A DNA stretch of 64,000 bases from Heterodontus francisci (lineage: Eukaryota). The stretch covers positions 32,830,430 to 32,894,429 of the forward strand of contig NC_090399.1 of the NCBI RefSeq assembly GCF_036365525.1, given 5' to 3'. Shown here piece after piece: positions 37,084 to 63,990 of this stretch. Numbering within the stretch: position 1 is the stretch's first letter; each line of letters starts with the position of its first letter. The translations under genes were made by a program, and so were the position numbers. The notes beneath the pieces are model-generated. The model saw only the letters and a program-made list of their open reading frames with translations, did not search any database and was not told the DNA's origin.

Positions 37084-37179
37084 TGACTCAAACTGTCTGG
37101 GACTATTCTGCCTGGAGCCTTTTGACTCACAGTCTGTTTTAATTCTGATTGGATATTAACTTATCGTCCAACCAATCAG
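37084..37179 (+). promoter_or_regulatory. Additional proximal promoter motifs (2x AP-1, 2x CCAAT)
   Basis: TGACTCA at 37084 and 37123; CTGATTGG at 37145; CCAATCAG at 37172. Confidence 0.5.
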
Positions 37180-37353: not shown

Positions 37354-37402
37354 ATGATTGCACTCATAGTGCTGGTCCTTCTGTGTGGAGGGGTCTCTGC
37401 AG
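37354..37402 (+). CDS. MHC class I heavy chain, exon 1 (signal peptide MIALIVLVLLCGGVSA)
   Basis: acaATG start, 16 hydrophobic codons ending VSA, then G|GTGAGT donor (phase 1). Joins to 49071 to give GGC=Gly of GSHSLRY. Not in the ORF track because it is too short. Confidence 0.9.
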
Positions 37403-38449
37403 GTGAGTAATGGGGTGTGAGAGGGGCAGTGCCAGACTGGGTATTGGGACATTAACTCTCGGTCAGTGAGTAATGGGGTGTGAGAGGGACAGTGCCAGAC
37501 TGGGTATTGGGACAGTAACCCTCTGTCAGTGAGTAATGGGACGTGAGAGGGACAGTGCCAGACTGGGTACTGGGACAGTAACCTTCGGTCAGTGAGTAAT
37601 GGGGTGTGAGAGGGACAGTGCTAGACTGGGTACTGGGGCATTAACCCTCGGTCAGTGAGTAATGGATTGTGAGAGGGTCAGTGCCAGACTGGGTATTGGG
37701 ACAGTAACCTTCGGTCAGTGAGTAATGGGGCGTGAGAGGGACAGTGCCAGACTGGGTACTGGGGCAGTAACCCTCGGTCAGTGAGTAATGGGGTGTGAGA
37801 GGGACAGTGCCAGACTGGGTACTGGGACAGTAACCTTCGGTCAGTGAGTAATGGGGTGTGAGAGGGACAGTGCCAGACTGGGTACTGGGGCATTAACCCT
37901 CTGTCAGTGAGTAATGGATTGTGAGAGGGTCAGTGCCAGACTGGGTATTGGGACAGTAACCTTCGGTCAGTGAGTAATGGGGCGTGAGAGGGACAGTGCC
38001 AGACTGGGTACTGGGGCAGTAACCCTCGGTCAGTGAGTAATGGAACGTGAGAGGGACAGTGCCAGACTGGGTATTGGGACAGTAACCTTCGGTCAGTGGG
38101 TAATGGGGCGTGAGAGGGACAATGCCAGACTGGGTACTGGGGCAGTAACCCTCGGTCAGTGAGTAATGGGGTGTAAGAGGGACAGTGCCAGACTGGGTAC
38201 TGGGGCAGTAACCCTCGGTCAGTGAGTAACGGGGTGTAAGAGGGACAGTGCCAGACTGGGTACTGGGAAATGAACCCTCGGTCAGTGAGTAATGGGGTCT
38301 GAAAGGGACTGTGCTAGACTGGGTACTGGGGCATTAACCCTCCTTCAGTGAGTAATGGGGCGTGAGAGGGACAGTGCCAGACTGGGTACTGGGACACGAA
38401 CCCTCGGTCAGTGAGTAATGGATTGTGAGTGGGACAGTGCCAGACTGGG
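37403..38449. repeat. 63-bp minisatellite at the start of MHC intron 1 (resumes 41256-41450)
   Basis: Unit gtcagtgagtaatggggtgtgagagggacagtgccagactgggtactgggacagtaaccctcg; about 16 copies plus about 3 after the Penelope insertion. Confidence 0.95.
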
Positions 38450-38512
38450 ATAAAAACAAGAAATGCTGGAACCACTCAGCAGGCCTGGCAGCATCTGTGG
38501 AAAGAGAAGCAG

Positions 38513-38549
38513 AGTTAACGTTTCGGGTCAGTGACCCTTCTTCGGAACT
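38513..38549 (-). ncRNA. Minimal hammerhead ribozyme motif (PLE-associated)
   Basis: Exact reverse complement of 41117-41153. Confidence 0.7.
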
Positions 38550-41116
38550 GACAAATATTAGAAAAGTCACAGGTTATAAGCAAGTGAGGTGGGGGTGGGG
38601 CAAGAGATAACAAAGGAGAAGGTGTACATTGGACAAGGCCACATAACTGACCAAAAGGTCATGGAGCAAAGGCAAACAATATGTTAATGGTGTGTTGAAA
38701 GACAAAGCATTAGTACAGATTAGGTCTTAACGGACTGAATATTGAACAGCAGCAAGTGCAAACCTGAAAAAAAACAGTGGGTAAGCAAATTGAACAAACT
38801 AAGATGAAATGAAATAAATGCAAAAAAAAGATTGTAAAAAATGTAAAAAAGAAAAAAAGAAAAAATAACTAAAAATGAAAGTAAAATGGGGGGCTGTCAT
38901 GCTCTGAAATTATTGAACTCAATGTTCAGTCCGGCAGGCTGTAGTGTGCCTAATCGGTAGATGAGATGCTGTTCCTCGAGCTTGTGTTGATGTTCACTGG
39001 AACACTGCAGCAATCCCAGGACAGAGATGTGAGCATGAGAGCAGGGGGGAGTGTTGCAATGGCAAGCAACCGGAAGCTCAGGGTCCTGCTTGCGGACTGA
39101 GCGGAGATGTTCCGCAAAGCGGTCACCCAGTCTGCGCTTGGTCTCCCCAATGTGGAGGAGACCACATTGTGAGCAGCGAATGCAGTATACTGAATTGAAA
39201 GAAGTACAAGTAAATCGCTGCTTCACCTGAAAGCAGTGTTTGGGGCCTGGGATAGTGAGGAGAGAGGAGGTAAATGGGCAGGTATTACACCTCCTGTGAT
39301 TGCAGGGGAAGGTGCCATGGGATGGGGACAAGGTGGTGGGGGTAATAGAGGAGTGGACCAGGGTGTCGCAGAGGGAATGATCCCTTCGGAATGCTGACAG
39401 GGGAAGGGAGGGGAAGATGCGTTTGGTAGTGGCATCACGCTGGAGGTGGCGGAAATGGCGGCGGATGATCCTTTGGATATGGAGGCTGATGGGGTGGAAA
39501 ATGAGGTCAAGGGGAACCCTGTCGCGGTTCTGGGAGGGAGGGGAAGGGGTGAGGGTAGAGGTGCGGGAAATGGGCCAGACACGGTTGAGGGCCCTGTCAA
39601 CCACAGTGGGGGGAAATCCTCGGTTGAGGAAAAAGGAGGTCATATCAGAAGCACCGTCATGGAAGGTAGCATCAACAGAGCAGATGCGTTGGAGACAGAG
39701 AAACTGGGAGAATGGAATGGAGTCCTTACAGGAGGTAGGGTGTGAAGAAGTGTAGTCGAGGTAGCTGTGGGAGTCGGTGGGCTTATAATGGATATTAGTA
39801 GACAGCCTATCCCCAGAGATGGAGACAGAGAAGTCGAGGAAGGGAAGGGAAGTGTCAGAGATGGACCATGTAAAGGTGAGAGAAGGGTGGAAATTGGAAG
39901 CAAAGTTGATAAAGTTTTCCAGTTCGGGGCGGGAGCAGGATATGGCACTGATACAGTCATCAATGTACCGGAAAAAGAGTTGGGGGAGGGGGCCTGAGTA
40001 GGAATGGAACAAAGAATGCTCGACATATCCCACAAAAAGACAGGCAAAACTAGGACCCATGCGGGTACCCAAAGCAACAGCTTTTACTTGAAGGAAGTGC
40101 GTGGAGTTGAAGGAGAAGTTGTTCAATGTGAGAACAAGTTCAGCCAGGCGGAGGAGGGTGGTGGTGGATGGGGACTAGTTGGGCCTCTGTTCCAGGCAGA
40201 AGCGGAGAGCCCTCAAACCATCCTGGTGGGGGATGGAGGTGGAGAGTGATTGGACATCCATAGTGAAGAGGAGGCGGTTGGGACTAGGAAACTGGAAATT
40301 GTCAAAATGACGTAGAGTGTCAGAAGAGTCACGGATGTAGGTGGGAAGAGACTGGACCGGGGAAAAAAGATAGAGTCAAGATAGAAAGAAATAAGCAATC
40401 GCAGGAGGTGTAATACCTGCCCATTTACCTCCTCTCTCCTCCCTATCCAAGGTCCCAAACACTCCTTTCAGGTGAAGCAGCGATTTACCGTATTCGCTGC
40501 TCACAATGTGGTCTCCTCTACATTGGGGAGACCAAGCGCAGACTGGGTGACCGCTTTGCGGAACACCTCCGCTCAGTCTGCAAGCAGGACCCTGAGCTTC
40601 CGGTTGCTTGCCATTTCAACACTCCCCCCTGCTCTCATGCTCACATCTCTGTCCTGGGATTGCTGCAGTGTTCCAGTGAACATCAACGCAAGCTCGAGGA
40701 ACAGCATCTCATCTACCGATTAGGCACACTACAGCCTGCCGGACTGAACATTGAGTTCAATAATTTCAGAGCATGACAGCCCCCCATTTTACTTTCATTT
40801 TTAGTTATTTTTTCTTTTTTACATTTTTTACAATCTTTTTTTTGCATTCATTTCATTTCATCTTAGTTTGTTCAGTTTGCTTACCCACTGTTTTTTTTTC
40901 AGGTTTGCACTTGCTGCTGTTCAATATTCAGTCCGTTAACACCTAATCTGTACTCATGCTTTGTCTTTCAACACACCATTAACATATTGTTTGTCTTTGT
41001 TCCATGACCTTTTGGTCAGCTATGTGGCCTTGTCCAATCTACACCTTCTCCTTTGTTATCTCTTGCCCCACCCCCACCTCACTTGCTTATAACCTGTGAC
41101 TTTTCTAATATTTATC

Positions 41117-41153
41117 AGTTCCGAAGAAGGGTCACTGACCCGAAACGTTAACT
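41117..41153 (+). ncRNA. Minimal type I hammerhead ribozyme motif (PLE-associated)
   Basis: AGTT-CCGAAGA-A-GGGTC/ACT/GACCC-GAAA-CGTT-AACT: helix I 4 bp, helix II 5 bp, palindromic ACGT helix III. Confidence 0.7.
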
Positions 41154-41944
41154 CTGCTTCTCTTTCCACAGATGCTGCCAGACCTGCTGAGTGGTTCCAG
41201 CATTTCTTGTTTTTATTTCAGATTTCCAGCCTCTGCAGTATTTTGCTTTTATTTAAGTGCCAGACTGGGTACTGGGACATTAACCCTTGGTTAGTGAGTA
41301 ATGGATTGTGGAGAAGGACTGTGCCAGACTGAGCATTGGGGCACTAACCCTCGGTCTGTGAGTGATGGATTTTGAGAGGGACAGTGCCAGACTGGGTACT
41401 GGGACATTAACCCTCAGTTAGTGAGTAATGGGTGCGAGAGGGACAGTGCCATATGTATGTAACTTCCAGTACGTGCAAATTCACCAAACTTCAAGCCCTA
41501 CTGGCAATCTTAAATTGGTTATCAGTGTAATTCTTAGCACACTGTGGATTATTTAGCAAATGTTGTCCAATCGCAAATGTTGTTAATACAAAGGGCCCTG
41601 TTCTTTGCAGACAGAATATGTACAAACATTGTGCCTATTTCAGCTGAACAAAATAAGTGACAGCTGTTCGCTGGTTCATTACTCAGGGCAATGCCTTGAC
41701 CAATCAGAATCAAGCTGCCTTGTTTAAATTTTAAACAAAGCTTGGCAGTTAACTGTCAGTCACCTTGAATTGGTGCATTTGCCATGGCAACGCCTCCACC
41801 AATCAGAGTTCACTTGCTAACCAATCAGCACTCTCCTCATGCAGTATAAGTTGTTGTTCTCCCTTACATTGGATATACTTGCAACTGTCCTGATGAGTGC
41901 AAGACAAAAAGCTCCAACAGCATTTCTCTATTTTCAGCAATGCT

Positions 41945-42740
41945 CGAATCAGGATTAATTGAAGACCTCATAGTGAAGGCGTCCCTCGGTAGCAGCGATC
42001 ATAATATGACTGCATTTTGCATTCAATTTTAGGGAGAGAAGCATGGGTCCAAGACTAGTTTTTAACTGTAAAAAAGGCAATTATGAGGCATGAAAGCAGA
42101 GGTAGCTTAAGTGAACTGACAAATTAAGTTAAGGGATAGGTCAATAGGGATGCAGTGGCAGACATTTAAGGGGATATTTAAGAATACACAGAATAGATAC
42201 ATTCCAACGAGAAATAAAAATTCCAAGAAGAGGACCCACTATCCGTGGTTAACTAAAAACATTAAAAATAGTATCAAACTTAAAGAAAAAGCATATAATT
42301 GTGCAAAGATGGGTAACAGGTCAGAAGATTGGATGGAATATAAAATAACAGAAAAGAATGACGAAAAGATTGATAAGAAGGGAAAAGTTAGTGTGTGAGA
42401 GAAAGCTAGCTAGAAATAGAAAAACAGAGTTAGAGTTTGTATACATAGTTTAAAAAGAAGAGTTAGCAAAGTGAGCATTGGTCCTATGAATATGAGTCTG
42501 TGGAATTAATAAGGGAAAAATAAGGAAATGGCAGATGAATTGAACAGGTATTTCGCATCAGTCTTTAATACAGAAGATACAAGTAACATCCCAGTATTAG
42601 CTGTAAATCAGGAAATGGAAGGGAGGGGGGAACTCGAAAAAAAATTACAATTACCAGGAAGTGGTACTGAGTAAATTGTTGAAGCTGCGGGCTGATACGT
42701 CCCTGGGTCTTGATGGACTTCATTCTAGGGTCTTAGGTAG
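41945..42740 (+). mobile_element. Degenerate CR1 LINE internal fragment
   Basis: QWQTFK..YIP..PWLT linker; LNRYFASVF-like and SPG-like segments. Confidence 0.7.
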
Positions 42741-43565
42741 TTGATGCATTGATGTCTCTCTCTGTGCGTGGGATTGTTGTTCTGGGGTTCATGCCCTGTT
42801 TGTATCTGTGTGTGTATGCCTGCTTGCTTGCTGTTTTGAGGTCCTTTCCCTAATGTCTCGCTGTCTCCCTGTGTGGGGTTGGGGTCTGTGCTTTGGGGTC
42901 CATGCCCTGATATCCCTTATGTGTGGGATTAGTGTTTTGGGGTTTATACCCTGATGTCTCTCTCCATTTGAGGTTGGTGTTTGGGGTTTATACCCTGATG
43001 TCTCTCTCCATTTCGAAATGGTGTTTTGGGGTTTATACCCTGATGTCTCTCTCCATTTCGAAATGGTGTTTTGGGGTTTATGCCTTGATGTCTCTCTGCG
43101 TGGGGTTGGTGTTTTGGGGTTTATGCCTTGATGTCTCTCTGCGTGGGGTTGGTGTTTTGGGGTTCATGCCTTGATGTCTCTCTGTGTGGGGTTGTTGTTT
43201 TGGGGTTCATGCCTTGATGTCTCTCTGTGTGGGGTTGTTGTTTTGGGGTTCATGCCTTGATGTGTCTCTGTGTGGGGTTGTTGTTTTGGGGTTCATGCCT
43301 TGATGTCTCTCTGTGTGGGGTTGTTGTTTTGGGGTTCATGCCTTGATGTGTCTCTGTGTGGGGTTGTTGTTTTGGGGTTCATGCCTTGATGTCTCTCTGT
43401 GTGGGGTTGTTGTTTTGGGGTTCATGCCTTGATGTCTCTCTGTGTGGGGTTGTTGTTTTGGAGTTCATGCCTTGATGTCTCTCTGTGTGGGGTTGTTGTC
43501 TTGGGGTTCATGCCTTGATGTGTCTCTCTCTGTGGGTTTGTTGTTTTGGGGTTCATGCCCTGATA
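42740..43565. repeat. 43-bp GT-rich minisatellite (continues 48247-49060)
   Basis: Unit gatgtctctctgtgtggggttgttgttttggggttcatgcctt (e.g. 43173, 43216). Confidence 0.92.
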
Positions 43566-46500
43566 TAGTGTCATAGACTTATACAGCACAGAAACAGGCC
43601 CTTTGGCCCCTCGTGTCTGTGCTGGCCATCAAGCACCTAACTATTTTAATCCCATTTTCCAGCACATGGCCCGTAACCTTGTATGCTATGGTGGCATTTC
43701 AAGTGCTCATCTAAATACTTCTTAAATGTTATGAGGGTCCCTGCCTCTACCCACTCTTCAGGCAGTGTGTTTCAGATTCCAACCAACCTCTGGGTGAAAA
43801 AAAAACCTCAAATCCCCTCTAAACCTCCTGCCCCTTACCTTAAATCTATGCCCCCTGGTTATTGACCCCTCTGCTAAGGGAAAAAAGTTTCTTCCTATCT
43901 AATCTATCAATGCCCCTCATAATTTGGTATACTTCCATCAAATCCCTCCTCAGCCTTCTCTGCTCGAAGGAAAACAACCCTAACCTTTTCAGTCTCTCTT
44001 CATTGCTGATATGCTCCAGCCCAGGCAACATCCTGGTGAATCTCCTCTGCACCCTCTCCAGTGAAATCACATCCTTCCTATAGTGTGATGACCAGAACTG
44101 TACACAGTACTCCAGCTGTGGTGGAACTAGCGTTTTATACAGCTCCATCACAATCTTCCTGTTCTTATATTCTATGCCTCGACTAATAAAGGCAAGTATC
44201 CCATATGCCTTCCGAACCACCTTATCTACCTGTGCTGCTACCTTCAGTGATCTATGGACAAATACACCAAGGTCCCTCTGACCTTCTGTACTTCCTAGGG
44301 TCCTACCATCCATTGTATATTCCATTCCCGTGTTAGTCCTCTTAAAATGCATCACCTCACACTTCTCAAGATTAAATTCCATTTGCCACTGCTCCGCCCA
44401 TCTTACCAGCCCATCTATATCGTCCTGTACTCTAAGGCTTTCCTCCGCACTATTTACGACACCTCCAATTTTCATGTCATCTGCGAACTTACTTGTCATA
44501 CCTCCTAGGTTCACGTCTAAATCATTAATGTACACTACAAACAGAAAGAGTCCCAGCACCAATCCCTGCAGTACACCACTGGTCACAGGCTTCCACTCAC
44601 AAAAACAACCCTCAACCATCACCCTCTGCCTCCTGCCACTAAGCCAATTTTGGATCCAATTTGCCAAATTGCCCTGGATCCCATGGGCTCTTACCTTCTT
44701 AACCAATCTCCCATGCAGGACCTTATCAATAACCTTACTGAAGTCCATGTAGATTGCAACAGCTGCTTTACCCTCATCTACACATCTAGTCACCTCCTCG
44801 AAAAATTCAATCAAGTCAGTTAGACACAATCACCCCCCGACAAAGCCATGATGACTATTCCTGAATAATCCTTGCCTCTCCAAGTGGAGATTAATCCTGT
44901 CCCTCAGAATCTTTTCCAATAGTTTCCCAACCACTGATGTTAGACTCACCGGTCTGTAATTACCTGGTTTATCCCTGCTACCCTTCTTGAATAATGGTAC
45001 CACATTCGTTGTCCTCCAGTTCTCTGGTACCTCTCCTGTGGCTAGAGAGGATTTGAAAATTTGTGTCAGAGCCCCTGCTATTTTCTCCCTTGCCTCACAT
45101 AACAACATCCTGGGATAAATCTCATCTGGGCCTGGGGACTTATCCTCTTTGAAGCCCGCTAAAACAGCTAATATTTCCTCCCTTTCAATGCTAATATGTT
45201 CAAGTATATCACAATCCCCCTCCCTGATCTCTGCACCTACATCGTCCTTCTCCATAGTGAACACAGATGAAAAGTAATCATTTAGAACTTCACCTCTGTC
45301 CTCCGGCTCCTCACACAGATTGCCACTTGGGTCCCTAATGGACCCTACTCTTTTCTTTGTTATCCTCTTGCCCTTAATATACTTATAAAACGCCTTAGGA
45401 TTTTCCTTTATCTTGCCCGCCAATGTTTTTTCATGTCCCCTCTTTGCTCTCCTAATTACTTTTTTAAGTACCCCCCCCCACTACATTTTCTATACTTCTC
45501 TTGTGCCCCCACTGTTTTCAGCGCTCTGAATCTGCCATAAGCTTCCTTTTTTTTCCTTATCCAATCCTCTGTATCCCTTGACATCCAGGGTTCCCTGGAC
45601 ATGTTTGTCTTACCCTTCACCTTAATGGGTACATGTTGGCTCTGAACTCTCACTATTTCCTCTTTGAATGACTCCCACTGGTCTGATGTGGATTTTCCTA
45701 CAAGTAGCTGCTCCCAGTCCACTTTGGCCAGATCCTATTGAAATCGGCCTTCGCCCAATTCAGTACTTTTATTTCCAGTCCATCTTTGACCTTTTCCATA
45801 ACTACCTTAAATCTTACAGAGTTCTGGTCACTATCTCCGTAATGCTTCGTCACTGACACTTCTACCACTTGTACGGCTTCTTTCCCTAGTATTAGGTCAA
45901 GTACTGCCCCTTCTCTTGTAGGATATTCTACATACTGGCTCAGAAAGCTTTCTTGTATGCATTTTAAGAATTTTGCCCCCTTTACGCCTTTTGCAATAAG
46001 ACTCTATTCTTTGGCCTCCTTATCTCGAGAGACAATGGATAAGCGCCATTTGTTTGTCGGGGCTGTTACACAGTTGGCTCTCTCCTTGCGCCTCTGTCTT
46101 TTTTCCTGCCAACTATTAAGTCTCTTCGACTCGCCACACTTTAGCCCTGTCTTTATGGCTGCCCGCCAGCTCTGGCGAACGCTGGCAACTGACTCCCACG
46201 ACTTGTGATCAATGTCACAGGATTTCATGTCGCGTTTGCAGACGTCTTTATAGCGGAGACATGGACGGCCGGTAGGTCTGATACCAGTGGCGAGCTCGCT
46301 GTACAATGTGTCTTTGGGGGTCCTGCCAACTTCCATGCGGCTCACATGACCAAGCCATCTCAAGCGCCGCTGACTCAGTAGTGTGGATAAGCTGTTGACT
46401 CAGTAGTGTGTATATGCCTCCTCGAGGACTTGTGTGTTGGAGATACGGTCCTGCCACCTGATGCCAAGTCACACTAAGACTATCCCAGTTGATATTGGGG

Positions 46501-48246
46501 AAGTTGAAATCCCCTACTATTATTACCCTATTATTTTTACACCTCTCAGAGATTTGCCAACATATCTGCTCCTCCATCTCTCCCTGACTGTTTGGATGCC
46601 TGCAGTACACTCCCAGCCAAGTGATTGCCCCCTTTTTGTTTTTAAGTTCTACCCATATGGTCTCATTTGAGGAACCTTCTAAGATATCATCCCTCTTTAC
46701 TGCAGTAATTGACTCTGTGATCAACAGTGCAATGCCACCTCCTCTTTTATCCCCTCCCCTGTCACGCCTATGGATTCTGTACCCTGGAATATTGAGCTGC
46801 CAGTCCTGCCCCAGCTCAACCATGTCGCTGTGGTAGCAACAATATCATAATCTCCCAGCAAGGTTGTTGGTCCTGTCCAGCTTGTACAGGTCCCACCTTC
46901 GCCAGAAACAGACCCAATGATCCAGGAAACTGAAGCCTCCCTCCCTCCCTCCTGCACCATCTCCTCAGCCACACATTCATCTTCTCTATCCTCCCATTCC
47001 TATACTCACTAGCATGTGTCACCACGAGTAATCCATAGATTACAACCTTTGAGGTCTTGCTTTTTAATCTGCTACCTAGCTCCCTAAATTCTTGTTGCAG
47101 GACCTCATCCCTCTTTTTACCTATGTCATTGGTACCAATGTGTACTACGATCTCTGACTGTTCACCCTCCCCCTTCAGAATGTCCTGCAGCCGCTCTGTG
47201 ACATCCTTGACCCTAGCACCAGGGAGGCATCATACCATCCTGCAGTCATGTTTGCGGCCACAGAAACACCTATCTGTACCCCTGACAATAGAATCCCCTA
47301 TCACGATGGCTCTTCCACTCCTTTTCCTCCCCTGCTGTGCAGCTGAGCCACTCATGGTGCCACACACTTGGCTCTTGCTGCATTCCCTTGAGAAGCTAGC
47401 TTCCCCAACAGTACCCAAAGTGGAAAATCTGTTGGAAGGGAGATGGGCCCAGGGGACTCCTGCACTACCTGCCTAGTTCTTTTACTCTGCCTGGCGGTCA
47501 CCCATTCCCTTTCTGATTGAGCAATCTTTACCTGAGGTGTGACCACCTCCCTGTATGTGCTATCCACGATGATCTCAGCTTCGCGGATGCTCCACAGTGT
47601 CTCCACCCGCCGCTCCAGATCCGAAACACGGATTTCGAGTAGCTCCAACTGGAGACACCTGCTACACAAGTGTTCGCCCTGGACACTGGAGTGTCCTGAC
47701 TTGCCACATTGCACAGGAGGAGCACTCCACTTTGCTGAGCTGCCCTGCCATGACTTGCCCTTAATTTATCCCCTTAAATTACCCAAAATTAGAGATTATT
47801 TACAGTAGGGACCTTGATTCTCCAAAAAAAGAACTACTTAATATATTTTTAAAAACGTAAACCTTTCCCTTTACTTTTAGTTACTTACCCAGCTATTTAG
47901 AGTTATTCCCAAACAGCAGTTAATCACCAACCAATCACCTTGCAGCTTTCCTGTGATGTCACTGCTCACTTTGTTTTCAAACTCCGGCGCGTCTGGACTC
48001 TCGGCATTCTCCCCACAGGTCCGCTCCTCTCCGCTTCGCTCCCAGAAGACAAGTCACTGCGCCTCCATCCTCGGGCTCAATTTATTGGCTCTGCTCTTGG
48101 TGTTCTCCCCACAGGTCCGCTCCTTTCCACTCCGTTCCCAGAAGGTAAGTCACTGTGCCTCGATCCTTGGGCTCAATTTATCGGCTCCGCTGTCTGCATT
48201 CTCACCACAGGTCCACTCCTCTCCGCTATGTTCCTGGTAGGTAAGT
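43566..48246 (-). mobile_element. Near full-length CR1 LINE (ORF1 zinc-finger/esterase-like plus ORF2 EN-RT) with 96-bp 5' tandem repeats
   Basis: ORF1 HLCSRCLQL..AIVIGDSIVRG; ORF2 VIIVGDFNFP, KSPGPDEIYP, FADD; splits the 43-bp array. Confidence 0.9.
46004..46468 (-). mobile_element. RTE 3' fragment nested in CR1
   Basis: RWLGHVSRME..PKDTLYSEL plus RTE tail. Confidence 0.88.
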
Positions 48247-49060
48247 GTCTCTCTGTGTGGGGTTGGTGTGTTGGGGTTTGTGCACTGACATTTCGCTGTG
48301 TGGGGTTGGTGTTTTGGGGTTCATGCCCTGATGTCTCTCTCTGTGTGGGATTGGTGTTTTGGGATTTGTGTACTGACATTTCACTGTGTGGGGTTGGTGT
48401 TTTCTGGTTTGTGCACTGATGTCTCACCTAGCAAGGTTCATGGTTTGGGGTTCAAGCCACGATGTGTCTGTCCGTGTGGTGTTGGTGTTTTGGGTTCATG
48501 CCCTGATGTCTCTCTGTGTGGGGTTGGTGTTTTGGGATTTGTGTACTGACATTTCACTGTGTGGGGTTGGTGTTTTCTGGTTTGTGCACTGACATTTCAC
48601 TGTGTGGGGTTGGTGTTTTCTGGTTTGTGCACTGACATTTCACTGTGTGGGGTTGGTGTTTTGGGGTTCATGTCCAGTTGTCTCTCTCTGTATGGCATTG
48701 GTACTTCGGGGTTCAGGCCCTGATGTCTCTCTGTGTGGGGTTTCTTTGGGGTTTCATATCCTGATGTCTCTGTGTGTGTGGGTTTGTTGTTTTGGGGTTC
48801 ATGTCCTGATGTCTCTCTGTGTGGGGCTGGTATATTGGGGTTCATTCCCTGATGACTCACTCTGTTTCTCTGTGGGATTTTCTTTTGGAGTTCATGCCCT
48901 GATGTGTATTTCTGTGTGGGTTTGGTTTTTGGTGTTCATTCCCTGCTGGCTCCCATCTCTCTCTCTCTGTGGGATTGCTGTTTCGGGGTTCATGCCTGAT
49001 GTGTGTCTCGCTGTGGGATTGGTGTTTTGGGGTTCATACCCTGATATGTCTCTCTCTCTC
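48247..49060. repeat. 43-bp GT-rich minisatellite, distal part, abutting the alpha1 acceptor
   Basis: Degenerate copies of the 42740 unit; the last copy runs into the polypyrimidine tract. Confidence 0.88.
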
Positions 49061-49070
49061 TCTGTTTAAG

Positions 49071-49331
49071 GCTCTCACTCTCTCCGGTATTTCCTCACCT
49101 CCATGACTCCGATTCCCGGTTTGCCAGAGTTTGTGGTTGTTGGTTATGTTGACGAGGTCCTGTTTGTTATGTACAACAGTGAGCAGAAGGAGCTGATTCC
49201 CCGGGAGCAGTGGATGGTGGAGAGTGAGGGGCCCGAGGCCTGGGCACGGAAGACTTTCCTGGCACAGGAGCAGGCGGTGGATTTGAAAGCCTGTAATCAG
49301 ATCCTCATGTCCAGAACCAACCAGTCAGGTG
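49071..49331 (+). CDS. MHC class I heavy chain, exon 2 (alpha1 domain)
   Basis: Acceptor ...ctgtttaag|, donor G|GTGAGT. Translates (G)SHSLRYFLTSMTPIPGLPEFVVVGYVDEVLFVMYNSEQKELIPREQWMVESEGPEAWARKTFLAQEQAVDLKACNQILMSRTNQSG, with class I motifs GSHSLRYF, GYVD and the N86 glycan site NQS. Confidence 0.95.
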
Positions 49332-49479
49332 GTGAGTCCTTGCCTTCACACTTCACTTTACCTCTTTTTGTGGGTTACAGGTTCCAGGTGGGAATGGGGA
49401 GAAGCCGGCAGTAGAGCAGGATTTGGAAGGCAGGGTCCCAAAGATAAAGAACTCCCCAGGGCAGTTACCAATGGGATAA

Positions 49480-52265: not shown

Positions 52266-52602
52266 GCAATACACTATAAGTGACTAAGTATATTACAACA
52301 TAAAAGATTACTAAAAGATCGAAAACAAAAGTCCAACCTTGACAATGTTACAGCAAAATGTCTTGGAATATCTATGAAAATTCAAAGTAAGCTGTTATCT
52401 TAAATTCCTCAAGTAAGCCTCCTGTTTAACAAAACAAAACACTCACGAATAATTCTCTTGTCATGCAGTCAGTCTCCTTTACCATAGATTGAGAAGCATT
52501 ATTGAGGAATTCAATACTTCTAATTTTTCAATTCAAAACTCTCACGCCTATACTGTTTCTAATCAATTAGTCATCCTTTGTAAATGTGGGTGTTACCTTT
52601 CT

Positions 52603-52702
52603 GGCCTTTATAGCCACTCCAGGCGCTGCTCCACACACCACTGACCACCTCCAGGCGCTTACCCATTGTCTCTCGAGATAAGGAGGCCAAAGACTACAAG
52701 AC
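52603..52702 (+). mobile_element. ~100-bp RTE 3' tip
   Basis: Matches the RTE 3' end; 9-bp TSD TACCTTTCT at 52594 and 52703. Confidence 0.85.
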
Positions 52703-53424
52703 TACCTTTCTTTGAATGTTCCTTCCTCTTTCATTATTCATATATGGTTGTATCTTTCACTTATTAATTATTTAATTGCTGGGGATTCCCTTATGAAGTT
52801 GTGAGCTTTTATCTGTTCAAAATGTTTGTAGTGTTTCATAGTAACAGTATGACCTTGCTTTATTGGTTACTTAACTTCATAAACGTGTTTTATTCTTCAA
52901 AGCTTTTTAAATGTCAGGTTAACTTAGGGTTACATAGCATCTGATTTTTGTCCATGATGTGCCATTTTGTGATTGATCATTCACAATGGTTCCTTAGTGC
53001 TACCTTGCACCATCTTCTTAAGACAGTGTGTCTATATTATATTTCATTATCAGCTAATTAGGACAGTAGTTATCAGTGTATATCATATACAGTATGTCTC
53101 ATTTTTTAATTAATTTAGCAGAGACATTGGGATGGATTTTTAACTAAAGGGCTTTTATTACACATTTCAATGTAGCAGAGATGTCAGGATGAATTTTTAA
53201 TGCTTTTATCTTGAAAACTGACAATTTACTCAATTTTTAATTGTATTAAATGAATCTTTATTCCTAAAGTGTAATTTATTATATCTGAATTCTACTTAAT
53301 TAAATGTATGTATTAATTATCTATATTCTTTCCTAATTATCCGTACTATACCTATAGTTCATCACACGGGTGGGGGAGTGTTCCTTTAAATACACAGAAC
53401 AAGATCTGGGGTTGAGTGTTCCTT

Positions 53425-56400
53425 GTGGGATGTTTTGCTGGTGCTGTTGGGGATGGTTTAAACTAGTTTGGCGGGGGGATGGGGACCTGAGGGTATACTC
53501 AGTTGGGAGAAAATCAGAAATAAAAATGGAAGGCAGAAAGTTAATGGTTGAGTCTGAAAGATAGAGGAAACAAAGGTTAGAAAACAAAAAAAAATTGTTG
53601 GGCAGTGGTCAAGATTATTTATTTCAGTGCAAGGAGTATAGCAAATAAAGCAGATGAGCTGAGGGCACAGATAGACACCTCGCAGTATATCATATCATTC
53701 GCTATTACAGAAACAATGCTTAAGGAGGGACAGGAATAGCAGTTCAACGTTCCTGGTTACAAGGTTTTCAGAGGCGATAGGGAGGGGATAAGAAATGAGG
53801 GGGAGTGGTAATTTTGGTTAAGGAAACTATTACAGCTGTGAGGAGGGATGATTTGTTGGAAGGTTCATCAAATGAGGTCATATGAATTGAGCTAAGGAAC
53901 AAAAAAAGGGCAATCACACTGCTGTGAGTGTACTATAGACCCTCAAACAGTCAGAGGGAGATAGAAGAGCAGATATGTGGGAAAATTTCTGGGAAGTGCT
54001 AGAACAATAGGGTAGTAATAGTAGGGGATTTTAACTACCCCAATACTAACTGGGATAGTTTTAGTGTGAAAGGAATTGAGGGAGCAGAATTCTTGAGGTG
54101 CATTCAGGAGAACCTTTTTGGCCAGTATGTAGCAAGTCCAACAGAGGGATAGACTTAGTTTTAGGAAATGAAAATGGACTGGTGGAAGGAGTGGCAGTGG
54201 GAGAGCATTTTGGTGGTAGTGATAATAATTCAGTCAGTTTTAACAGAATTATGGAAAAGGACAGAGATAGAACAGGAGTTAGAGTTCTCAATTGGGGCAG
54301 TGTAAGGCATTCAAGAGGGAGATTCAAGGGGTTCAGATTAAACATGTTCCTACAAAGAAAAGGAGTGAGATGGCCAAATCTGGAGCCCCATGGATGTCAA
54401 GGAGCCTACAGGGTAAGCTATGGCAGAAAAGGAAAGCTTATGTCCAACACTACAGAAAGTAGAAAGGAGAAATCAAAAAGGAAATTAGGAAAGCAAAGAG
54501 AGGGCATGAAAGAATATTGGCAAGTAAAATCAAGGTGAACCCAAAGATGTTTTATCAATACATTAAGAGTAAGAGGATAACTAAGGAAAGAGTAGGGCCC
54601 ATAAAAGACCAAAAAGGTAACCTATATGTAGGGGCAGAAGATGTTGGTATGGTTCTTAATGAATACTTTGCATCTGTCTTCACAAAAGAGGGGGATGATA
54701 CAGATTTAATAGTTAAGGAGGAAGAGTGTGAAGTAATGGATGTGATAAACGTAGGGAGAGAGGATTAATGGGATTAGCATCCTTGAAAGTTGATAATTCA
54801 CCAGGGCCAGATGAAATGTACCCTAGGCTGTTAAAAGACATGAGAGAGGAAATAGCAAAAGGTCTGACCATCATTTTCCAGGACTCACTGGGTACAGGTG
54901 TGATGCCAGAGGATTGGAGAACTGCTAACATTGAACCTGTTTGAAAAGGGAGCGAGGGAGAGACCAAATAACAGGTCAGTCAGTCAGTCTTACCTCAGTA
55001 GTGGACAAATTATTGAAATCTATTCTGTGAGACATTTTAAACTGTCACTTAGAAAGGCACAAGTAAATCAAGGATAGTCAGCATGGATTTGTTAAGGGAA
55101 GTTCTAGTTTGACCAACTTGAATGAATTTTTTGAAGAAGTAACAAGCAAGATAGATGAGGGTAATGCAGGTGATGTGGTCTACATGGATTTTAACAAGAC
55201 TATCGACGAGGTTCTGCATGGAAGACTGCATGAAAATAAATAAAATCCCATGGGATCCAGGGAAATGCAGCAAGGTGGATACAATATTGGCTCAGTGGCA
55301 GGAAACAAAGGGTAATTGTTGACAGGTGTTTTAGCGACTGGAGGGCTGTTCCCAGTGGCGTTCCGCAGGGCTCAGTATTGGGTCCCCTGTTTTCCATCCA
55401 AATCATTAATATATACCGTGTAAATATGGGGGGCACGATCAAGAAGTTTGCAGATGACACAAAGATTGGCTGTATGGTAGATAGCGAGGAGGATAGCTGT
55501 AGGCTACAGGAAGATATTGATGGTCTGTCAAATGGGCAGAAAAGTGGCAAATGGAATTCAACCTGGAGAAGTGTGAGGTGATGCATTTGGGGAGGTCAAA
55601 CAAGGCTTCTCAGTCTTTAGGGATAAGCCAGGATGTACAATCCTAACCATACATGATGTGGATATAGGAGGAACCATTCCTTTAAGACATCCTTACCACT
55701 TAAGTCCAGACAGGCCCAAGTAAAAGCAGAAATCCAATACATGCTGGAAAAAAACTTGATTGAACCTAGTCAGAGTAGCTTTTGGGGAGGAGGAATATAC
55801 AATTAATGGGAAAATACTGAGAAGTGTAGATGAAGTAAGGGGCCTTGTAGAGAATGTCTACAGATCCCTGAATGTAGCAGGACAGGTCGACAAGGTGGTT
55901 AAAAAAGCAATATGGAATCCTTTCCTTTATTAACTGAGGTATAGAATATAAGAGCAAGGAGGTTATGCTGGAACTGTATAATTCGGTGGTTAGACCACAA
56001 CTTGAGTACCGTGTGCAGTTCTGGTCACCTCATTACAAAAAGGATGTAATTACACTAGAGAGGGTACAGAGGAGATTTATGAGGATGTTGCCAGGACTGG
56101 AAAAATGTAGCAATGAGGAAAGATTGGATAGGCTGGGGTTGTTCTCCTTGGAACAGAGAAGGCTGAGGGGTGATCTTATTGAAATGTACAAAATTTTGAG
56201 GGGCCTGGATAGAGTGGAGGTGAAGGGTCTATTCATCTTAGAGAGGTCAGTGACGAGGGGGCATAGATTTAAAGTGATTGGGAAAAAAAAGAGATGAGGA
56301 AAACCATCTTCACCCAGAGGGTGGTGGGTGTCTGGAACTCACTGCTTGAAAGGGTAGTTGAGGCAGACACCCTGTACTTACTCAAAAGGAGCCTGGATAT

Positions 56401-56535
56401 GCACCTCAAGTGCAGTAATCTGCAGGGCTACAGACCAAATGCTGGAAGGTGGGATTAGAATAGGTGGATTGTTTTTTGGCCGGCACAGACACAAGGGGCC
56501 AAGTGGCCTCTGTGTGCCTTAATCCTTCTATGATT
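53425..56535 (+). mobile_element. CR1 LINE (ORF1 end, ORF2, tail) interleaved with 175 bp of Gypsy RT at 55605-55780
   Basis: LNEYFASVFT, FADDTKIG, LEYRVQFWSP and 3' tail. Confidence 0.85.
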
Positions 56536-57900
56536 CCAGCTGGAGTTCACCAATAGTTCTAGTACCTAAACCGGAGGTCTACCCGATTTTGTATAGACTA
56601 CAGAAAAGTCAATGCAGTAACGAAGGCAGACTCCTATCCAATTCTGTGTTTAGAAGACTGTATCGACAGAGTGGGCAGTGCTAGATTTCCCACCAAGATT
56701 TACTTGTTAAAAAGGGATACTGGCAAGTTCCTTTGACTCCTTGAGCCAGAGAGATATCAGCTTTTGTAACACCAGACGGTCACCATCAGTGCCAAGTGAT
56801 GCCATTTGGGCAGAAAAATGCTTCAACCACTTTTCAAAGATTAATGAATCAGGTGATATCCCGTGTTCCCAACTGTGTAGTGTATCTCGATGATACAGTA
56901 ATACTTGGCAAGAACACAAACCAGCTAAAAATTCTGTTTAAAAAAACTACAAACAGCGGATTTAGTGATAAATCTGGAAAAAAGTGAATTCAGAAAAGCA
57001 AGAGTAACTTCCCTCGGACACATAATTGGGCAAGGACAAGTATTGCCAAAAATGGCAAAGGTACGTGCCTTAACGGAGTTCCCAGTCCCTAAATGTAAGT
57101 GGGAAATAACAAGGTTTTTGGAGATGTGTGGAAATTTGTCCAGAATTTTAGTACTGTGGCTGCTCCATTAACCAATTTACTGCAAAAAAACAAAGTGGTA
57201 TGGTCAGGTGAATATCAGGCAGCTTTTGAAAAGCTAAAGGCAATCCTAACTAATGAACCAGTGTTGGCTGCTCCAAATTTTGCAAAACCCTTTAATATTT
57301 TGCTCAGTGGTAGCGATCTGGTGGTTGGTGCAGTTCTATTGCAGGATAACGAATCAGGCATAGAGAAGCCAGGAGGGTACTTTAAGAAAACTAAATTGCC
57401 ATCAAAAAAAGTATTTCACTGTGGAAAAAGAAACATTACGACTTTTACGGGATCTCGAACATTTCGAAGTATAAGTCCACTGAGACTATAAACAAACACT
57501 AATATACACTGACCATAACCCATTAACGTTTGTGGAAAAATTTAAAAACTGAAATGCTGGAATATTTTGATGGAGTTTGCTGTTACAACTTTATCATTTG
57601 AAAATCGGACATATTTCAAGGAAAAAACAAAGTTATCACTGACACTTTATCACAAATTTAACCATGTTAAGTTACACAGATGGCGATGGTACAAAGAAAA
57701 TGCTGCAAATTCACTGTGAATGATTGCGTGAAAGTAAAAAAAGCTAGCGGTTTTTCCCAGCTGCTATTTCTTTTGTATTGTAATAAGGTTCATGTCAAGA
57801 ATGTCGTTTCATATCAAGGACAAAGGTGGGTCACGGAACAATATTTATTTTCCCCTCAGATTAAAACAGTGTGTACCATTCAGACTCTGTTTTTAAACAG
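55605..57900 (+). mobile_element. Gypsy RT-RNase H remnant (55605-55780 plus 56536-57900)
   Basis: ..LIEPSQSS | WSSPIVLVPKP..DYRKVN..MPFGQKNASTTFQRLMN..YLDD; VGAVLLQ. Confidence 0.85.
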
Positions 57901-57904
57901 TGTG

Positions 57905-59160
57905 CCAGTGGAGGGGAGGGGGAGGGAGAGTGGAGGGGAGGGGGAGAGAGAGTGGAGGGGAGGGGGAGAGAGAGTGGAGGGGAGGGGGAGAGAGAGTGGA
58001 GGGGAGGGGGAGAGAGAGTGGAGGGGAGGGGGAGAGAGAGTGGAGGGGAGGGGGAGAGAGAGTGGAGGGGAGGGGGAGAGAGAGTGGAGGGGAGGGGGAG
58101 AGAGAGTGGAGGGGAGGGGGAGAGAGAGTGGAGGGGAGGGGGAGAGAGAGTGGAGGGGAGGGGGAGAGAGAGTGGAGGGGAGGGGGAGAGAGAGTGGGGG
58201 GGAGGGGGAGAGAGAGTGGGGGGGAGGGGGAGAGAGAGTGTGGGGGAGGGGGAGAGAGAGTGTGGGGGAGGGGGAGAGAGAGTGTGGGGGAGGGGGAGAG
58301 AGAGTGTGGGGGAGGGGGAGAGAGAGTGTGGGGGAGGGGGAGAGAGAGTGTGGGGGAGGGGGAGAGAGAGTGTGGGGGAGGGGGAGAGAGAGTGTGGGGG
58401 AGGGGGGAGAGAGAGTGTGGGGGAGGGGGAGAGAGAGTGTGGGGGAGGGGGAGAGAGAGTGTGGGGGAGGGGGAGAGAGAGTGGAGGGGAGGGGGAGAGA
58501 GAGTGGAGGGGAGGGGGAGAGAGAGTGGAGGGGAGGGGGAGAGAGAGTGTGGGGGAGGGGGAGAGGAGAGAGGGGGTGGAGGGGGAGAGAGTGGGGGTGG
58601 AGGGGGAGAGAGTGGGGGTGGAGGGGGAGAGAGTGGGGGTGGAGGGGGAGAGAGTGGGGGTGGAGGGGGAGAGAGTGTTGGCGGGGAGGGGGAGAGAGTG
58701 TTGGCGGGGAGGGGGAGAGAGTGTTGGCGGGGAGGGGGAGAGAGTGTTGGCGGGGAGGGGGAGAGAGTGTTGGCGGGGAGGGGGAGAGAGTGTTGGCGGG
58801 GAGGGGGAGAGAGTGTTGGCGGGGAGGGGGAGAGAGTGTTGGCGGGGAGGGGGAGAGAGTGTTGGCGGGGAGGGGGAGAGAGTGTTGGCGGGGAGGGGGA
58901 GAGAGTGTTGGCGGGGAGGGGGAGAGAGTGTTGGCGGGGAGGGGGAGAGAGTGTTGGCGGGGAGGGGGAGAGAGTGTTGGCGGGGAGGGGGAGAGAGTGT
59001 TGGCGGGGAGGGGGAGAGAGTGTTGGCGGGGAGGGGGTGAGAGAGTGGAGGGGGTGAGGGGGTGAGAGAGTGGGGGGGGGAGGGGGTGAGAGAGTGGGGG
59101 GGGGAGGGGGTGAGAGAGTGGGGGGGGGAGGGGGTGAGAGAGAGAGGGGAGAGAGAGTAG
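57905..59160. repeat. G-rich 21-23-bp minisatellite array
   Basis: Units gagtggaggggagggggagaga changing to gagtgttggcggggagggggaga; more than 50 copies. Confidence 0.95.
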
Positions 59161-59252
59161 GGGTAGATCAGTTCCCTCTACTGGCAAACTGTGGACAACT
59201 TCTACAGTTACCATTACCAGATATTAAGTCACATTTTAAGTGCTGTTTATAT

Positions 59253-59983
59253 TGTTACGACCAACCGTTCAAGTCAGAGCTCCCAAACAAAATATGCGAT
59301 TCTGATTGTGGGGCAGAAATGCTCTTGATTCAATCCTGCACCTCCACAGATAACCAGGTGTATTTAGATCAACAAATTACCTGTTTAATTAGAAAAACGA
59401 AATTATTAAACATTACGATATAAACTTTTAAAATAGAAAAATTAGTGTCCTTGCATACTTACAATCCTGCCGAAGTAGAATCTTCCAATGTGGAAGAGTC
59501 CAAGGTTGCTTAAAGTTCTCACAGATGGGGGAGAAAAAAAGGTTCTTCAACAGTAGAACAGTCCGTAGTCGAATTCAGCAGTCGAGTTGATGCTCTTTTC
59601 CAGTGATGAATTGCAACAATTACAGTTCTGTAGTTCAAGGAATTTGGTTATTTTCTTTTAAGAAATTAATGTTGCTTGACAGAATTCTGAGTGTATAATA
59701 AATGAGGTTTAAATAAACAAACAGAGAGCTCTCATTTCCTCCAGTATATGCTGGTCCAGCTGTCTGTATTAACTGTGTCTCAAAAAACAGTTTTCAACTA
59801 GTTTCAAATGTCAATCGGCAACAATATATCTCTCGATCCTCAGTCTGAGTGGCTTTATCCTGGGACAATGAGAATGAATTCTTTGACTCAGTCTCTGGAG
59901 CTTGTTGCCTTAAAGCAGTACTGCTCCTTTTCCAGCCTTACAGGCACACCACAGTCTTCCTGAAAAAAAACTACAGTATCATA
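59253..59983. mobile_element. Solo LTR nested in the Gmr1-like protease region
   Basis: Starts TGTTACGA; ATAT duplicated on both flanks; removing it restores VPLYKQHL on the - strand. Confidence 0.65.
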
Positions 59984-60535
59984 ATATAAAGGTACAGGTA
60001 TCTATTCCCCACCAATTCCATTAACTAAAACTTTAGCATTCAGAATGATCCCTGGTGAAATGTTATACCTTTCGCCAGCAAAAGTATTTGGGTTGCTCCT
60101 GTATCCCTGAGTATAATAGATTTTCCTGCCTCACTTAAAGGATATGGCATTACATTTCCCATTGACAAGAACTCATTACAACTTTCGGGTATCTCATGTA
60201 TAACCTCTACACTCACTTTAGTTTTTGTTTCTGGTTTGACAGCCACCGTTAAATCAATAACCTGGTCTATTTTACTCTCAGTCAGAGCTCATTTCTCTAC
60301 GTTAGCTTTGTGTACCTTAACAAGTCCTATGGTTTTATCGCACAACTGCCAGCATTGTGAATGAAGATGATCTGTTTTGTGGCAATGATAACACTTTAAC
60401 TTGTGAAACCCACTTCAACCCTCGGCACTTTCCTTTCTGGCCTGTGATGATGATCCTGGGACATTCCCAGCTGTTCCTTCTTGTCTCCGACTACTTGCCT
60501 TCCTTTCTCTTTCCCATTTTCTATCCTTCTCCGGT

Positions 60536-61255
60536 TTAGGGAGGTGATGGACAAAAGGTTTTAGTCCACAGGACCTGAAGATGGCAGGACAGGTAGATAG
60601 AGTGGTGAAGAAGGCATATGGAATGCTTTCCTTTATTGGCCGAGGTATAGAATTTAAAAACAGGGATGTAATGCTGGAACAGTATAAAAACGCTGGTTAG
60701 GCCACAGTTAGAGTATTGCATACAGTTCTGGTAACCACTTTACGAAAGGACATAATTGCTCGAGAGAGAGTACAGAGGAGATGTACAAGAATGTCACCAG
60801 GGCACGAAATTGCAGCTTTGAGGAAAGGCTCGGGTTATTTTGCTTAGAACAGAGGAGGCTGAGGGGTGACTTACTTGAGGTGTACAAAATTATAAGGGGT
60901 CTAGATAGAATAGACAGGAAGGACCTGTTTCCCCTAGTGGAGAGGGGAATTACCAGGGGGCATAGATTTAAGGTGATTTGTGGAAGGATTAGAGGGGACC
61001 TGAGGAAAAACATTTTCACCCAGAGCGTGGTGAGTGTCTGGAATTCACTGCCAGGAATGGTGGTGAAGGCAGAAACCCTCAATTCTTTTAAATGGTACCT
61101 GGACATGCACCTGAAGTGCTTTAACCAGCAAGGCTATGGACCAGGTGCTGGAAAGTGGGATTAAATTGGGTGGGTAGTTTTTTTTTCCAGCCGGCACGGA
61201 CATGACTGGCTGAATGGCCTCCTTCTGTGCTGTAATTTTTCTATAGTTCTGTGGT
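60536..61255 (+). mobile_element. CR1 3' fragment
   Basis: LEQRRLRGDLLEVYK..FTQSVVSVWNSLP plus tail. Confidence 0.88.
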
Positions 61256-63559
61256 TCTCTTCACAAGCTCAAAATCATCAGCAATTTCCACTGCTTGCCT
61301 AGCTTTCAAAACTCTCAGGTTATCTACATGAGTTCTCACTACTGAAGGATTGAAATTTTTAAACTCTTCCAAGAGAATCAATTCTCTAAGTTTCTCATAT
61401 GTGGCTTCCATCTTTAATGTCTGTATCCAATGGTCAAAATTAATTTGCTTCACCCTCAAATTCTACAAATGACCGTCCAGCCAATCTCCACAAGTTCTGA
61501 AACTTTTGATGGTAAGCTTCAGGGACTAACTCATAAGCAGCGAGAATAGCCTTTTTTGCCATCTCAATCTGCAGAAGCCTCTTCAGGAAGCATGTCATAA
61601 GCTTCAGGAGTTCTGCCCATCAACCTGCTTTGCATAAGCAGTGTCCAGCTTTCCTTCAGCCATTTCATTTGTTTGGCTATTTTTTCAAAAGATATGAAAA
61701 ATGCCTCCAAGTCCTTTTTCTCAAAGTTAGGGAGAACATGTATGATTTTAAACAGCTTTTAGCTGTGTCCTGGGCTGAATTCAAATTCCTACTGACAAAA
61801 AACTTTCTCTGGATTCAAGACGACCCCTTTATCTTAGTTCCATCTTTTTTAACCTAAATTCTTCTCTCCTCTTTCACTTTCTCTCTGATGTGCTCTCTCT
61901 TTCTCCCATTCCAATTCAAGTTTTCTTAATTCTTTTTCAGCCTCAAGTTTTTTTTTGTTTATAACTTAATCCTAGCCAATACCACTGACTTACTATTTAC
62001 ATTCTCTGACTTACTATCTTTTTGTTCTTTATCTTCTAATTCATCTTCTAATCATGCCAAAGATTTGCAGGTTGATAGGTAAATTGGCCATTGTAAATTG
62101 CCCCTAGTGTAGGTAGGTGGTAGGAGAATTGAGGGAAGATGGGAGAGGGAAATGGGATTAATGTAAGATTAGTATAAATGGGTGGTTGATGGTTGGCACT
62201 GACTCGGTGGACCAAAGGGCCTGTTTCAGTGCTATATCTCTCTATGGCTCTGTGACTCTAATTTTAAATGTTGGGCTATTATGTCAATTACCTGCTTTTT
62301 AGCACCTTATTTCAACTCTCATCCCAATTGTGCTGCCAATTCTTTCAGTTTATTTTTAAAGTTCACACAGCACTGAGGGATATTCTCCTCTCCCAGAAAA
62401 AAAAACTACTGCAACTGCTAATGCCAGTCTGATGGCATAGCCTTTATTGTAGAAGAAACCTGGTTCCTTTTATTTATTTTTTCTTTCAAATTATTGCTCC
62501 CTTTATAAATAAGGTCATTGGTATTGGATTTAGATTGGAGACCAGACATAAGAGCAATTTATGTGATCCCAGAGACAAGCCCCCAATTAATATGTTGTGA
62601 CTGAGGCGGGAGAAATGCACTGCCAATTCAATCCCAATACGCGATAGGTTGTAGCATAATAAACTTTTCCCACTTACCAGAAATTAGCCAAATTAAAAAC
62701 TTGAGTAACCCCCAGAATAAAACAGACAAAACCATGTTTCTTTCAACAACAAACTAATTATTAATAAACTAAATTTGGAGATAAATCTATGTCTAAAGAC
62801 CTTAGAACTTTTTAGTTTATCCTAACCTTCATGCACACACATCGTATATTCAACAACTAACTGTTAACTTTATTTTTTTAAAAAAACAAGAGCTGTTTCT
62901 TCGGAATAAATAGGTGGGATGTAAGTCCTGGTGAGTTATGTTCCCAATTGGTGAGGTGTCCCAGCATTGAGTCATCAGATGCAACTCAAAGTCTCCAGGT
63001 GAATTTGATGAACAGATTTTACTGGATAGGTATTCAAAGCACTCCGGTTGCAGTAGGTGTTGCATAGTTCTTTTAATAAAGAATGTAGCAACAGTATTAT
63101 TTGGATTTTAAAACTGGTAGTCTTTCAGGAGAAACTCTACTGAGAATTCCAGTAAACACAAACAGATAACAGAGTCACTCTTGAAGCAGAGAATTCTTAT
63201 AATTTTGAAGTGAAAAGGAATTTACTACCTTCAACAATGCAAATGTTCTTTTTCTAGGGTTTTTTCCTCTCCTTAGACAATATAGAACCTGAAAATAAAT
63301 GTAGATTTTCCTACCAAGAGAGGACACCTTCCTTTTAGTGAAACACACTTTACTAGTCTCCAGTTCAAACTGGTCTTAGCCAGTTTTTATACAGTCAAAA
63401 GTCACAGTACAGCATGTGACTTCCCTCTCCTGCTGTTGCCTAGGAAACAGATGCAGCTGCTGGCACATTGCCCCTTAGTTTTTAAAGGCACACCATTTTC
63501 AAACAAAGTCTTAAAGGTAGACTGTTTTAAACAGAGGAGAAAAAAAAAGTTCTATAACA

Positions 63560-63717
63560 GTGTGAGTGGGCAGGTCTCCCAGTGGGAGTGGGTCTGATTT
63601 GTCTTTGTGTGGGTGGATGGGCAAACTTTCCCAATGGGACTAGCTCTGATTGGCTGCATGTGGGTGTGGTCTCCCAATGGGACTGGGTCTGATTGGCTCT
63701 GTGTGTCTGATTGACAG
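63560..63717. repeat. ~45-50-bp tandem repeat ending at the alpha2 acceptor
   Basis: Three copies of gtctcccaatgggactgggtctgattggct..gtg. Confidence 0.7.
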
Positions 63718-63990
63718 GGATCCACACATACCAGCTGATGACTGGCTGTGACCTGCGGGACGATGGGACCAGCACTGGATTCAACCAGTATGGCTGGGAT
63801 GGGCAAGACTACCTCAGCTTTGACAAGGATCACATGGTGTGGGTGACACCGGTCCCATGGGGGCAAATCATCCGAAACATATGGAACCAGGACACAGGTG
63901 ACAACCTGCGGTGGAAGAATTACCTGGAGGAGGAGTGTATTGATTGGTTGAGGAAATACCTGCAGTATGGACAGCGAGAATTGAGATTCG
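63718..63990 (+). CDS. MHC class I heavy chain, exon 3 (alpha2 domain); gene continues beyond the window
   Basis: Acceptor gattgacag|, donor G|GTGAGT at 63991. Translates (G)IHTYQLMTGCDLRDDG...YGWDGQDYLSFD...WKNYLEEECIDWLRKYLQYG, with the C101-C164 pair, W147, Y159 and Y171. Confidence 0.95.

Follow-up and report, generated by a model that had tools for sequence, protein, structure and literature searches.

Structure of a class I gene in the horn shark

The window analysed here, a stretch of 64,000 nucleotides from the horn shark Heterodontus francisci (NCBI RefSeq assembly GCF_036365525.1, contig NC_090399.1, positions 32,830,430 to 32,894,429), carries the leader, alpha1 and alpha2 exons of a class I gene of the major histocompatibility complex (MHC) on its forward strand. 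The gene is a transcribed copy of the multicopy non-classical lineage UBA with a frame that is open in the DNA, and its RNA includes a form in which exon 1 is joined out of frame to the middle of exon 2. Splicing and translation of the window joined the three exons, separated by two long introns (Table 1), into a stop-free frame, as an initial sequence-only reading had proposed, and both exon 2 (E = 1.7e-18) and exon 3 (E = 5.1e-25) matched Pfam MHC_I. The best match of each groove exon in the Protein Data Bank (PDB) was the nurse shark class I structure 6LUP, and a tblastn search with both groove exons as query found no second class I exon in the window. Exon 2 ends at 49331, where contigs of sequencing run X1 join; an alternative donor at 49328 would also preserve the frame, but these junctions favour 49331. 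A long pyrimidine tract marks the normal acceptor of intron 1, although its closing letters are AAG. Exon 3 ends in a phase-1 GT donor, and the alpha3 exon lies past the window edge.

Table 1. Features of the class I gene, in window coordinates; residues follow HLA numbering
Feature	Positions	Strand	Remarks
Promoter-like stretch (candidate)	37047..37176	+	Motif scan of 36900-37353 with consensus patterns, without shuffle control
Exon 1 coding part, leader peptide	37354..37402	+	Phase-1 GT donor; last letters seen as loose ends of exon 2 contigs
Intron 1	37403..49070	+	11,668 nt, GT-AG; 63-bp array at 5' end, 43-bp arrays near 3' end, LINE fragments
Exon 2, alpha1	49071..49331	+	Y7, A59 (49238), K63 (49250), C77 (49292), N78 (49295), R84, N86
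Internal acceptor in exon 2	49177..49180	+	CAG at 49177-49179; exon restarts at 49180
Intron 2	49332..63717	+	14,386 nt, GT-AG; retroelement reverse transcriptase fragment and 22-bp array (57907-59149)
Exon 3, alpha2	63718..63990	+	C101, Y123, I143 (63870), I146 (63879), W147, Y159, C164, W167, Y171

The RefSeq protein XP_067865100.1 represents the same gene, with 100% identity across both groove exons. Its model continues through the alpha3 domain, a transmembrane segment and a tail, which supplies the downstream exons that the sequence-only reading had left to be found, and the junction of exon 3 with alpha3 is also present in a contig. The first 37-40 residues of the model, used as the RefSeq first exon, match a long interspersed nuclear element (LINE) fragment at 34393-34518, with further LINE copies elsewhere in the window; this extension was therefore rejected as a genuine protein start and is likely an annotation artefact, the true start being likely the leader ATG at 37354. 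Unlike every other horn shark UBA protein inspected, XP_067865100.1 has a tail without a Ser-rich end. This tail is encoded beyond the window; its last exon may be mispredicted, or else the difference may be another lesion. The frameshifting splice form is not in the protein record.

An AlphaFold2 model built on a 67-row alignment had pLDDT values of 80-97 in the ectodomain blocks and a mean of 78.6 overall. The top Foldseek match to this model was 6LUP, the classical nurse shark molecule Gici-UAA (E = 2e-35; 56% identity), followed mostly by entries for mammalian MR1 (about 41% identity), which is the source of the RefSeq name; the likeness seen to MR1 is of a general class I kind only.

Assignment to the UBA lineage

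Of 135 proteins collected, the 121 spanning the ectodomain were aligned (14 partial rows were dropped), and a quick tree was made from 109 rows, leaving out 12 near-identical Triakis alleles. This tree placed the gene beside horn shark AAC60348.1 (77% identity in alpha1, 82% in alpha2, 92% in alpha3), within the clade of nurse shark AAC60347.1, a protein to which Supplemental File 10 of PMC10751288 gives the label UBA. In a careful tree, made from 38 selected rows, there was a 21-row UBA clade containing AAC60347 with support of 100/99, and the gene fell in a five-row horn shark clade with support of 99/99; the UBA clade was also found with alpha1 only (99/86) and alpha2 only (98/92) in the 38-row set. 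In neither tree did the gene cluster with Gici-UAA or the Triakis UAA alleles. Its alpha3 domain is 90-96% identical to those of six horn shark UBA rows, versus 67-72% for three horn shark rows of classical type. The tree rows included no labelled references for UCA-UGA; on visual comparison with the same Supplemental File 10, in which no UEA row was seen, its rows for UCA, UDA, UFA and UGA are much less similar to the gene than the UBA row is. On these trees, the gene appears to be neither a classical UAA gene nor the first of a new lineage, but a member of UBA. The earlier proposal of a class Ib gene outside the classical clade is thereby upheld, and the lineage, which had been left open and possibly new, is named.

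UBA is multicopy in the horn shark, since its clade includes several RefSeq proteins of this species that are encoded on the same 74.5-Mb contig. The lineage was reportedly described in 1997 by Bartl. A literature search found no paper devoted to the shark UBA groove, the primary UBA descriptions being beyond its reach. PMC10751288 describes UBA as a multicopy cluster between c4 and rxrb; the 64-kb window has neither c4 nor rxrb as a neighbour of the gene, and no other class I exon. UBA is derived from UAA according to PMC12562908, where Bartl 1997 is cited, and the passages of PMC6523485 consulted add nothing on shark UBA.

Family-wide and private changes in the groove

Positions were given HLA numbers by visual comparison with the rows for HLA-A2 and Gici-UAA in Supplemental File 10 of PMC10751288 and with the 6LUP alignments. 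The residues listed in the sequence-only reading were confirmed by alignment: Y7, R84, N86, C101, W147, Y159, C164, W167 and Y171 are kept, positions 59, 63, 143 and 146 are altered to A59, K63, I143 and I146, and the unpaired Cys of the alpha1 helix is at position 77. With Gici-UAA the gene shares Y7, R84, W147, Y159, Y171 and the C101-C164 pair. In a set of eight classical anchors (Y7, Y59, R84, T143, K146, W147, Y159 and Y171), Gici-UAA has all eight, whereas the gene keeps five, which is the commonest score in UBA; 41 of the 47 UAA-like rows keep seven or eight.

The altered pockets at both groove ends, noted in the sequence-only reading, are not peculiar to this gene but family-wide. Residues were tallied in 50 other distinct UBA rows and in 47 "UAA-like" rows, the latter being the remaining shark and ray rows, not all proven classical; isoforms and close copies are included, and the rows are not independent. 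Y59 occurs in 1/50 UBA rows (two have gaps) versus 42/47 UAA-like rows, K63 in 45/50 versus 1/47, I143 in 41/50 versus 0/47, K146 in 6/50 versus 43/47, and W156 in 38/50 versus 8/47. Loss of Y59, K63, I143 and loss of K146 are thus a signature of the UBA family, and the gene fits the clade signature derived in this analysis (not Y59, K63, I143, not K146, W156, E163). Three rows within the UBA clade or at its base, P0085 and P0087 (Stegostoma, Hemiscyllium) and P0031 (Pristiophorus), keep T143, and P0031 also keeps Y59 and K146; these may be UAA-UBA intermediates.

Fewer changes set the gene apart from other UBA members. Cys77 and Asn78 are each found in none of the 50 other UBA rows, Ile146 in one, and Leu32 (Q32L) and Arg144 in none of 45. 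Asn78 is absent from all 97 rows, at a position that is otherwise nearly always hydrophobic. The suggestion that the unpaired Cys might form a disulfide link found no support: Cys77 has no partner Cys within alpha1-alpha2, and 10 of the 45 other UBA rows have an extra unpaired Cys at other alpha1-alpha2 positions. An inter-chain disulfide via Cys77 was likewise set aside, position 77 being one that lines the groove.

The two ends of the groove differ in variability when compared at their pocket positions. The N-terminal end has a mean entropy of 1.02 bits among 46 UBA rows versus 1.46 in the 47 UAA-like rows, and the C-terminal end one of 2.24 versus 1.35 bits; K63 is paired with E163 or D163 in 40/46 UBA rows versus 1/47 UAA-like rows. 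The UBA groove is accordingly fixed at its N-terminal end and variable at its C-terminal end, the opposite of classical-type rows, which suggests a partly closed start pocket and an end that would have no grip on the peptide carboxylate.

Within residues 18-39 (49121-49186), five of eight diagnostic states match the classical-type horn shark protein XP_067865029.1 and not the UBA paralogs, versus 6/77 elsewhere (Fisher p = 0.0006; the window was picked post hoc, the states are interleaved and the comparison is at protein level only). This is a post hoc hint of an old sequence exchange with a classical-type locus.

Transcripts and an internal acceptor in exon 2

Transcript data consist of contigs from four runs (X1-X4), all of one sample and only guessed to be RNA. 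Contig depth is unsuited to ranking expression, and coverage gaps at 49071-49176 for this copy and at 49281-49331 in X2-X4 were not taken as absence. In X1, four contigs without any differing letters tile exon 3 at depths of 407-488, with loose ends that carry the last letters of exon 2 and the first letters of alpha3; both downstream junctions are in frame. The copy-specific stretch 63836-63938 is identical in all four runs, an X1 contig over 49224-49332 has the Cys77 codon unchanged, and non-repeat intron bins have zero depth.

At the other end of exon 2 the picture is different. Contigs beginning at 49177 in X1 and X3 carry 25 loose letters that are those of exon 1 (37375-37399), which places the junction at an internal acceptor that the sequence-only reading had not noticed. 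Splicing of exon 1 to 49180 skips 109 nt and shifts the frame, leading to a stop after 21 codons, 64 nt from the ATG; no upstream ATG in a rescuing frame was found, and an in-frame ATG lies 20 nt downstream of the early stop. No other exon 1 junction was seen for this copy; this one occurs in two of the four runs, the other two being uninformative. In X1 the out-of-frame contig has no differing letters and is unbroken to 49253, with a depth of 326 versus 290 in the gene-specific contig next to it. Position 49123 belongs to the skipped part, and there the whole of the depth listed for X1-X3 has the paralogs' letter. The codon of the private Q32L change (49160) removes an AG in the tract ahead of the internal acceptor, and the change may have favoured its use. 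The gene had been described as apparently intact; this holds for the DNA, with its open frame and two in-frame downstream junctions, but is doubtful for the main transcript because the only exon 1 junction seen is out of frame. No paper on such an out-of-frame splice was found in a narrow literature query in which all terms were required.

Surroundings in the window

Upstream of exon 1, the motif scan found three pentamers of the CCAAT/Y-box type (37047, 37148, 37172), two heptamers of the AP-1/X2 type (37084, 37123), and no match to ISRE, kB or TATA consensus patterns within 36900-37353. Tandem arrays built from splice-site flanks are found at 37403-38449, 42880-43564 and 48246-49055. The start of the 63-bp array unit coincides exactly with the donor of exon 1, and the unit repeats a hexamer similar to a donor, whereas the 43-bp G/T-rich units resemble the stretch ahead of the exon 2 acceptor; these arrays could affect acceptor choice.

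Elsewhere the window consists mostly of retroelement debris and tandem arrays. Retroelement fragments at 5748-6764, 31452-32258 and 50801-52273 encode an integrase and two reverse transcriptase frames. A single-exon rhodopsin-family receptor (Pfam 7tm_1, E = 1.6e-14), which we take to be GPR139-like, is encoded on the minus strand at 16666-14750 and lies upstream of the class I gene by about 21 kb. Its transmembrane segments TM1-TM6 stop near 15955 and give way to LINE-like DNA of about 1 kb, after which TM7 and the C-terminal part restart near 14990-14750; the receptor has likely been broken by insertion.

A probably silenced duplicate, or a functional paralog

The explanation favoured, with modest confidence, is that this transcribed UBA copy, with an open DNA frame and RNA that includes the form joining exon 1 to the middle of exon 2, is a partly or largely silenced duplicate whose output would be cut by out-of-frame splicing. 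With a frame-breaking form among its RNA, the copy probably yields less functional protein than would be expected from its intact DNA. The short frame would probably evade nonsense-mediated decay, its stop being close to the start codon, and such escape would account for the abundance of the broken form; in mammalian cells, according to PMC3273812, AUG-proximal stops can evade decay. The loss of output, if real, would be recent or partial, because the gene has only four departures at conserved columns, a count below that of 30 of the 45 other UBA rows (12 are lower and three are equal).

Several results weigh against this explanation. The same count gives no sign of relaxed selection at the protein level relative to the 45 UBA rows. 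The pyrimidine tract of the normal acceptor scores 0.94, versus 0.59 for the internal one. All four runs come from a single sample, and their RNA type is a guess. In X1 the paralog of XP_067865793 type, which is assembled further 3' (depth 215-311), has no contig over 5' exon 2 either; contig holes therefore occur, and the missing normal junction is uninformative. The share of the broken form, which can be estimated in X1 only and on the assumption of 31-letter words, depends on the local depth assumed, being 100% at 290-326, 47% at 400, 21% at 450 and 4% at 488; for that run it is put at about 20-100%, and contig simplification can hide the normal form. As to the lineage, UBA is not on one side of a branch in the alpha3-only tree (three changes, none forced by starred branches).

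Most of these points are shared by the main rival, a substantial possibility that is nevertheless clearly the less probable one, namely that the copy is a fully functional UBA paralog in which splicing out of frame gives a minor by-product, or the out-of-frame form derives from an allele or duplicate that is nearly identical, the normal form having been lost in graph simplification beside ten-fold more abundant paralogs, while Cys77, Asn78 and Ile146 tune the C-terminal pocket. The open frame through alpha3 and the transmembrane segment, the lack of excess departures at conserved columns, the strong normal tract and the similar contig hole of another paralog are all consistent with it, and the exon 3 depths of 407-488 would permit a broken share near or below 20%. 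It is harder to reconcile with the persistence of the out-of-frame contig in two runs, its unbroken course and its depth matching that of the adjoining contig in X1, with the lack of the copy's own letter at 49123 in the X1-X3 contigs listed, or with Asn78 at a position that is nearly always hydrophobic.

Whichever share is spliced normally, the protein from that RNA would adopt the fold of a class I heavy chain anchored in the membrane and would likely pair with beta2-microglobulin, with a groove predicted to accommodate peptide-like ligands whose termini are not anchored in the classical way. Four features that are family-wide, R62/K63, L66, E163 and W167, would make up a fixed and partly closed pocket at the N-terminal end. 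At the other, C-terminal end the hydrogen bonds to the end of the peptide would be lost through I143/I146 and C77, leaving side chains to hold the ligand or letting it run out of the groove. A bolder and rather improbable extension is that the UBA groove is turned around, its fixed N-terminal pocket (R62/K63 facing E163, L66, W156 and W167) reading one chemical mark at the start of the ligand while the C-terminal half varies from copy to copy, this copy adding a reactive Cys77 on the F-pocket wall and an on/off switch through the out-of-frame acceptor.

Another improbable reading is that the internal acceptor is a regulated switch by which tissues or immune stimulation would select either a productive form or one that is unproductive or is shortened at its N-terminus by a restart at the alpha1-loop ATG, with Cys77 trapping a thiol-bearing ligand when the protein is made. 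Both acceptors appear usable, the in-frame ATG lies shortly past the early stop and the junction recurs in two runs; however, the two runs without it are uninformative, the restart product would have neither a leader nor half of the groove floor, and Q32L beside the acceptor is private (0/45 other UBA rows), so that no conservation is shown. It is highly improbable that the gene is a divergent allele of classical UAA or founds a new class Ib lineage, a reading for which only the classical-type states in residues 18-39 speak and which is already refuted by the nesting of the gene within UBA in the full, alpha1 and alpha2 trees, in agreement with its anchor score and alpha3 identities, unless labelled references outside the set break the UBA clade.

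Implications for the UBA family

The gene itself is ordinary, an annotated copy of a known lineage. What is new is small: the out-of-frame splice form, and the quantification of a groove pattern with a fixed start and a variable end, of which a prior description is possible. This pattern is a concrete prediction for the elution of UBA ligands, for which this copy is possibly a poor choice. Because a copy with clean DNA can be spliced out of frame, counts of UBA copies based on open frames may overstate the working set.

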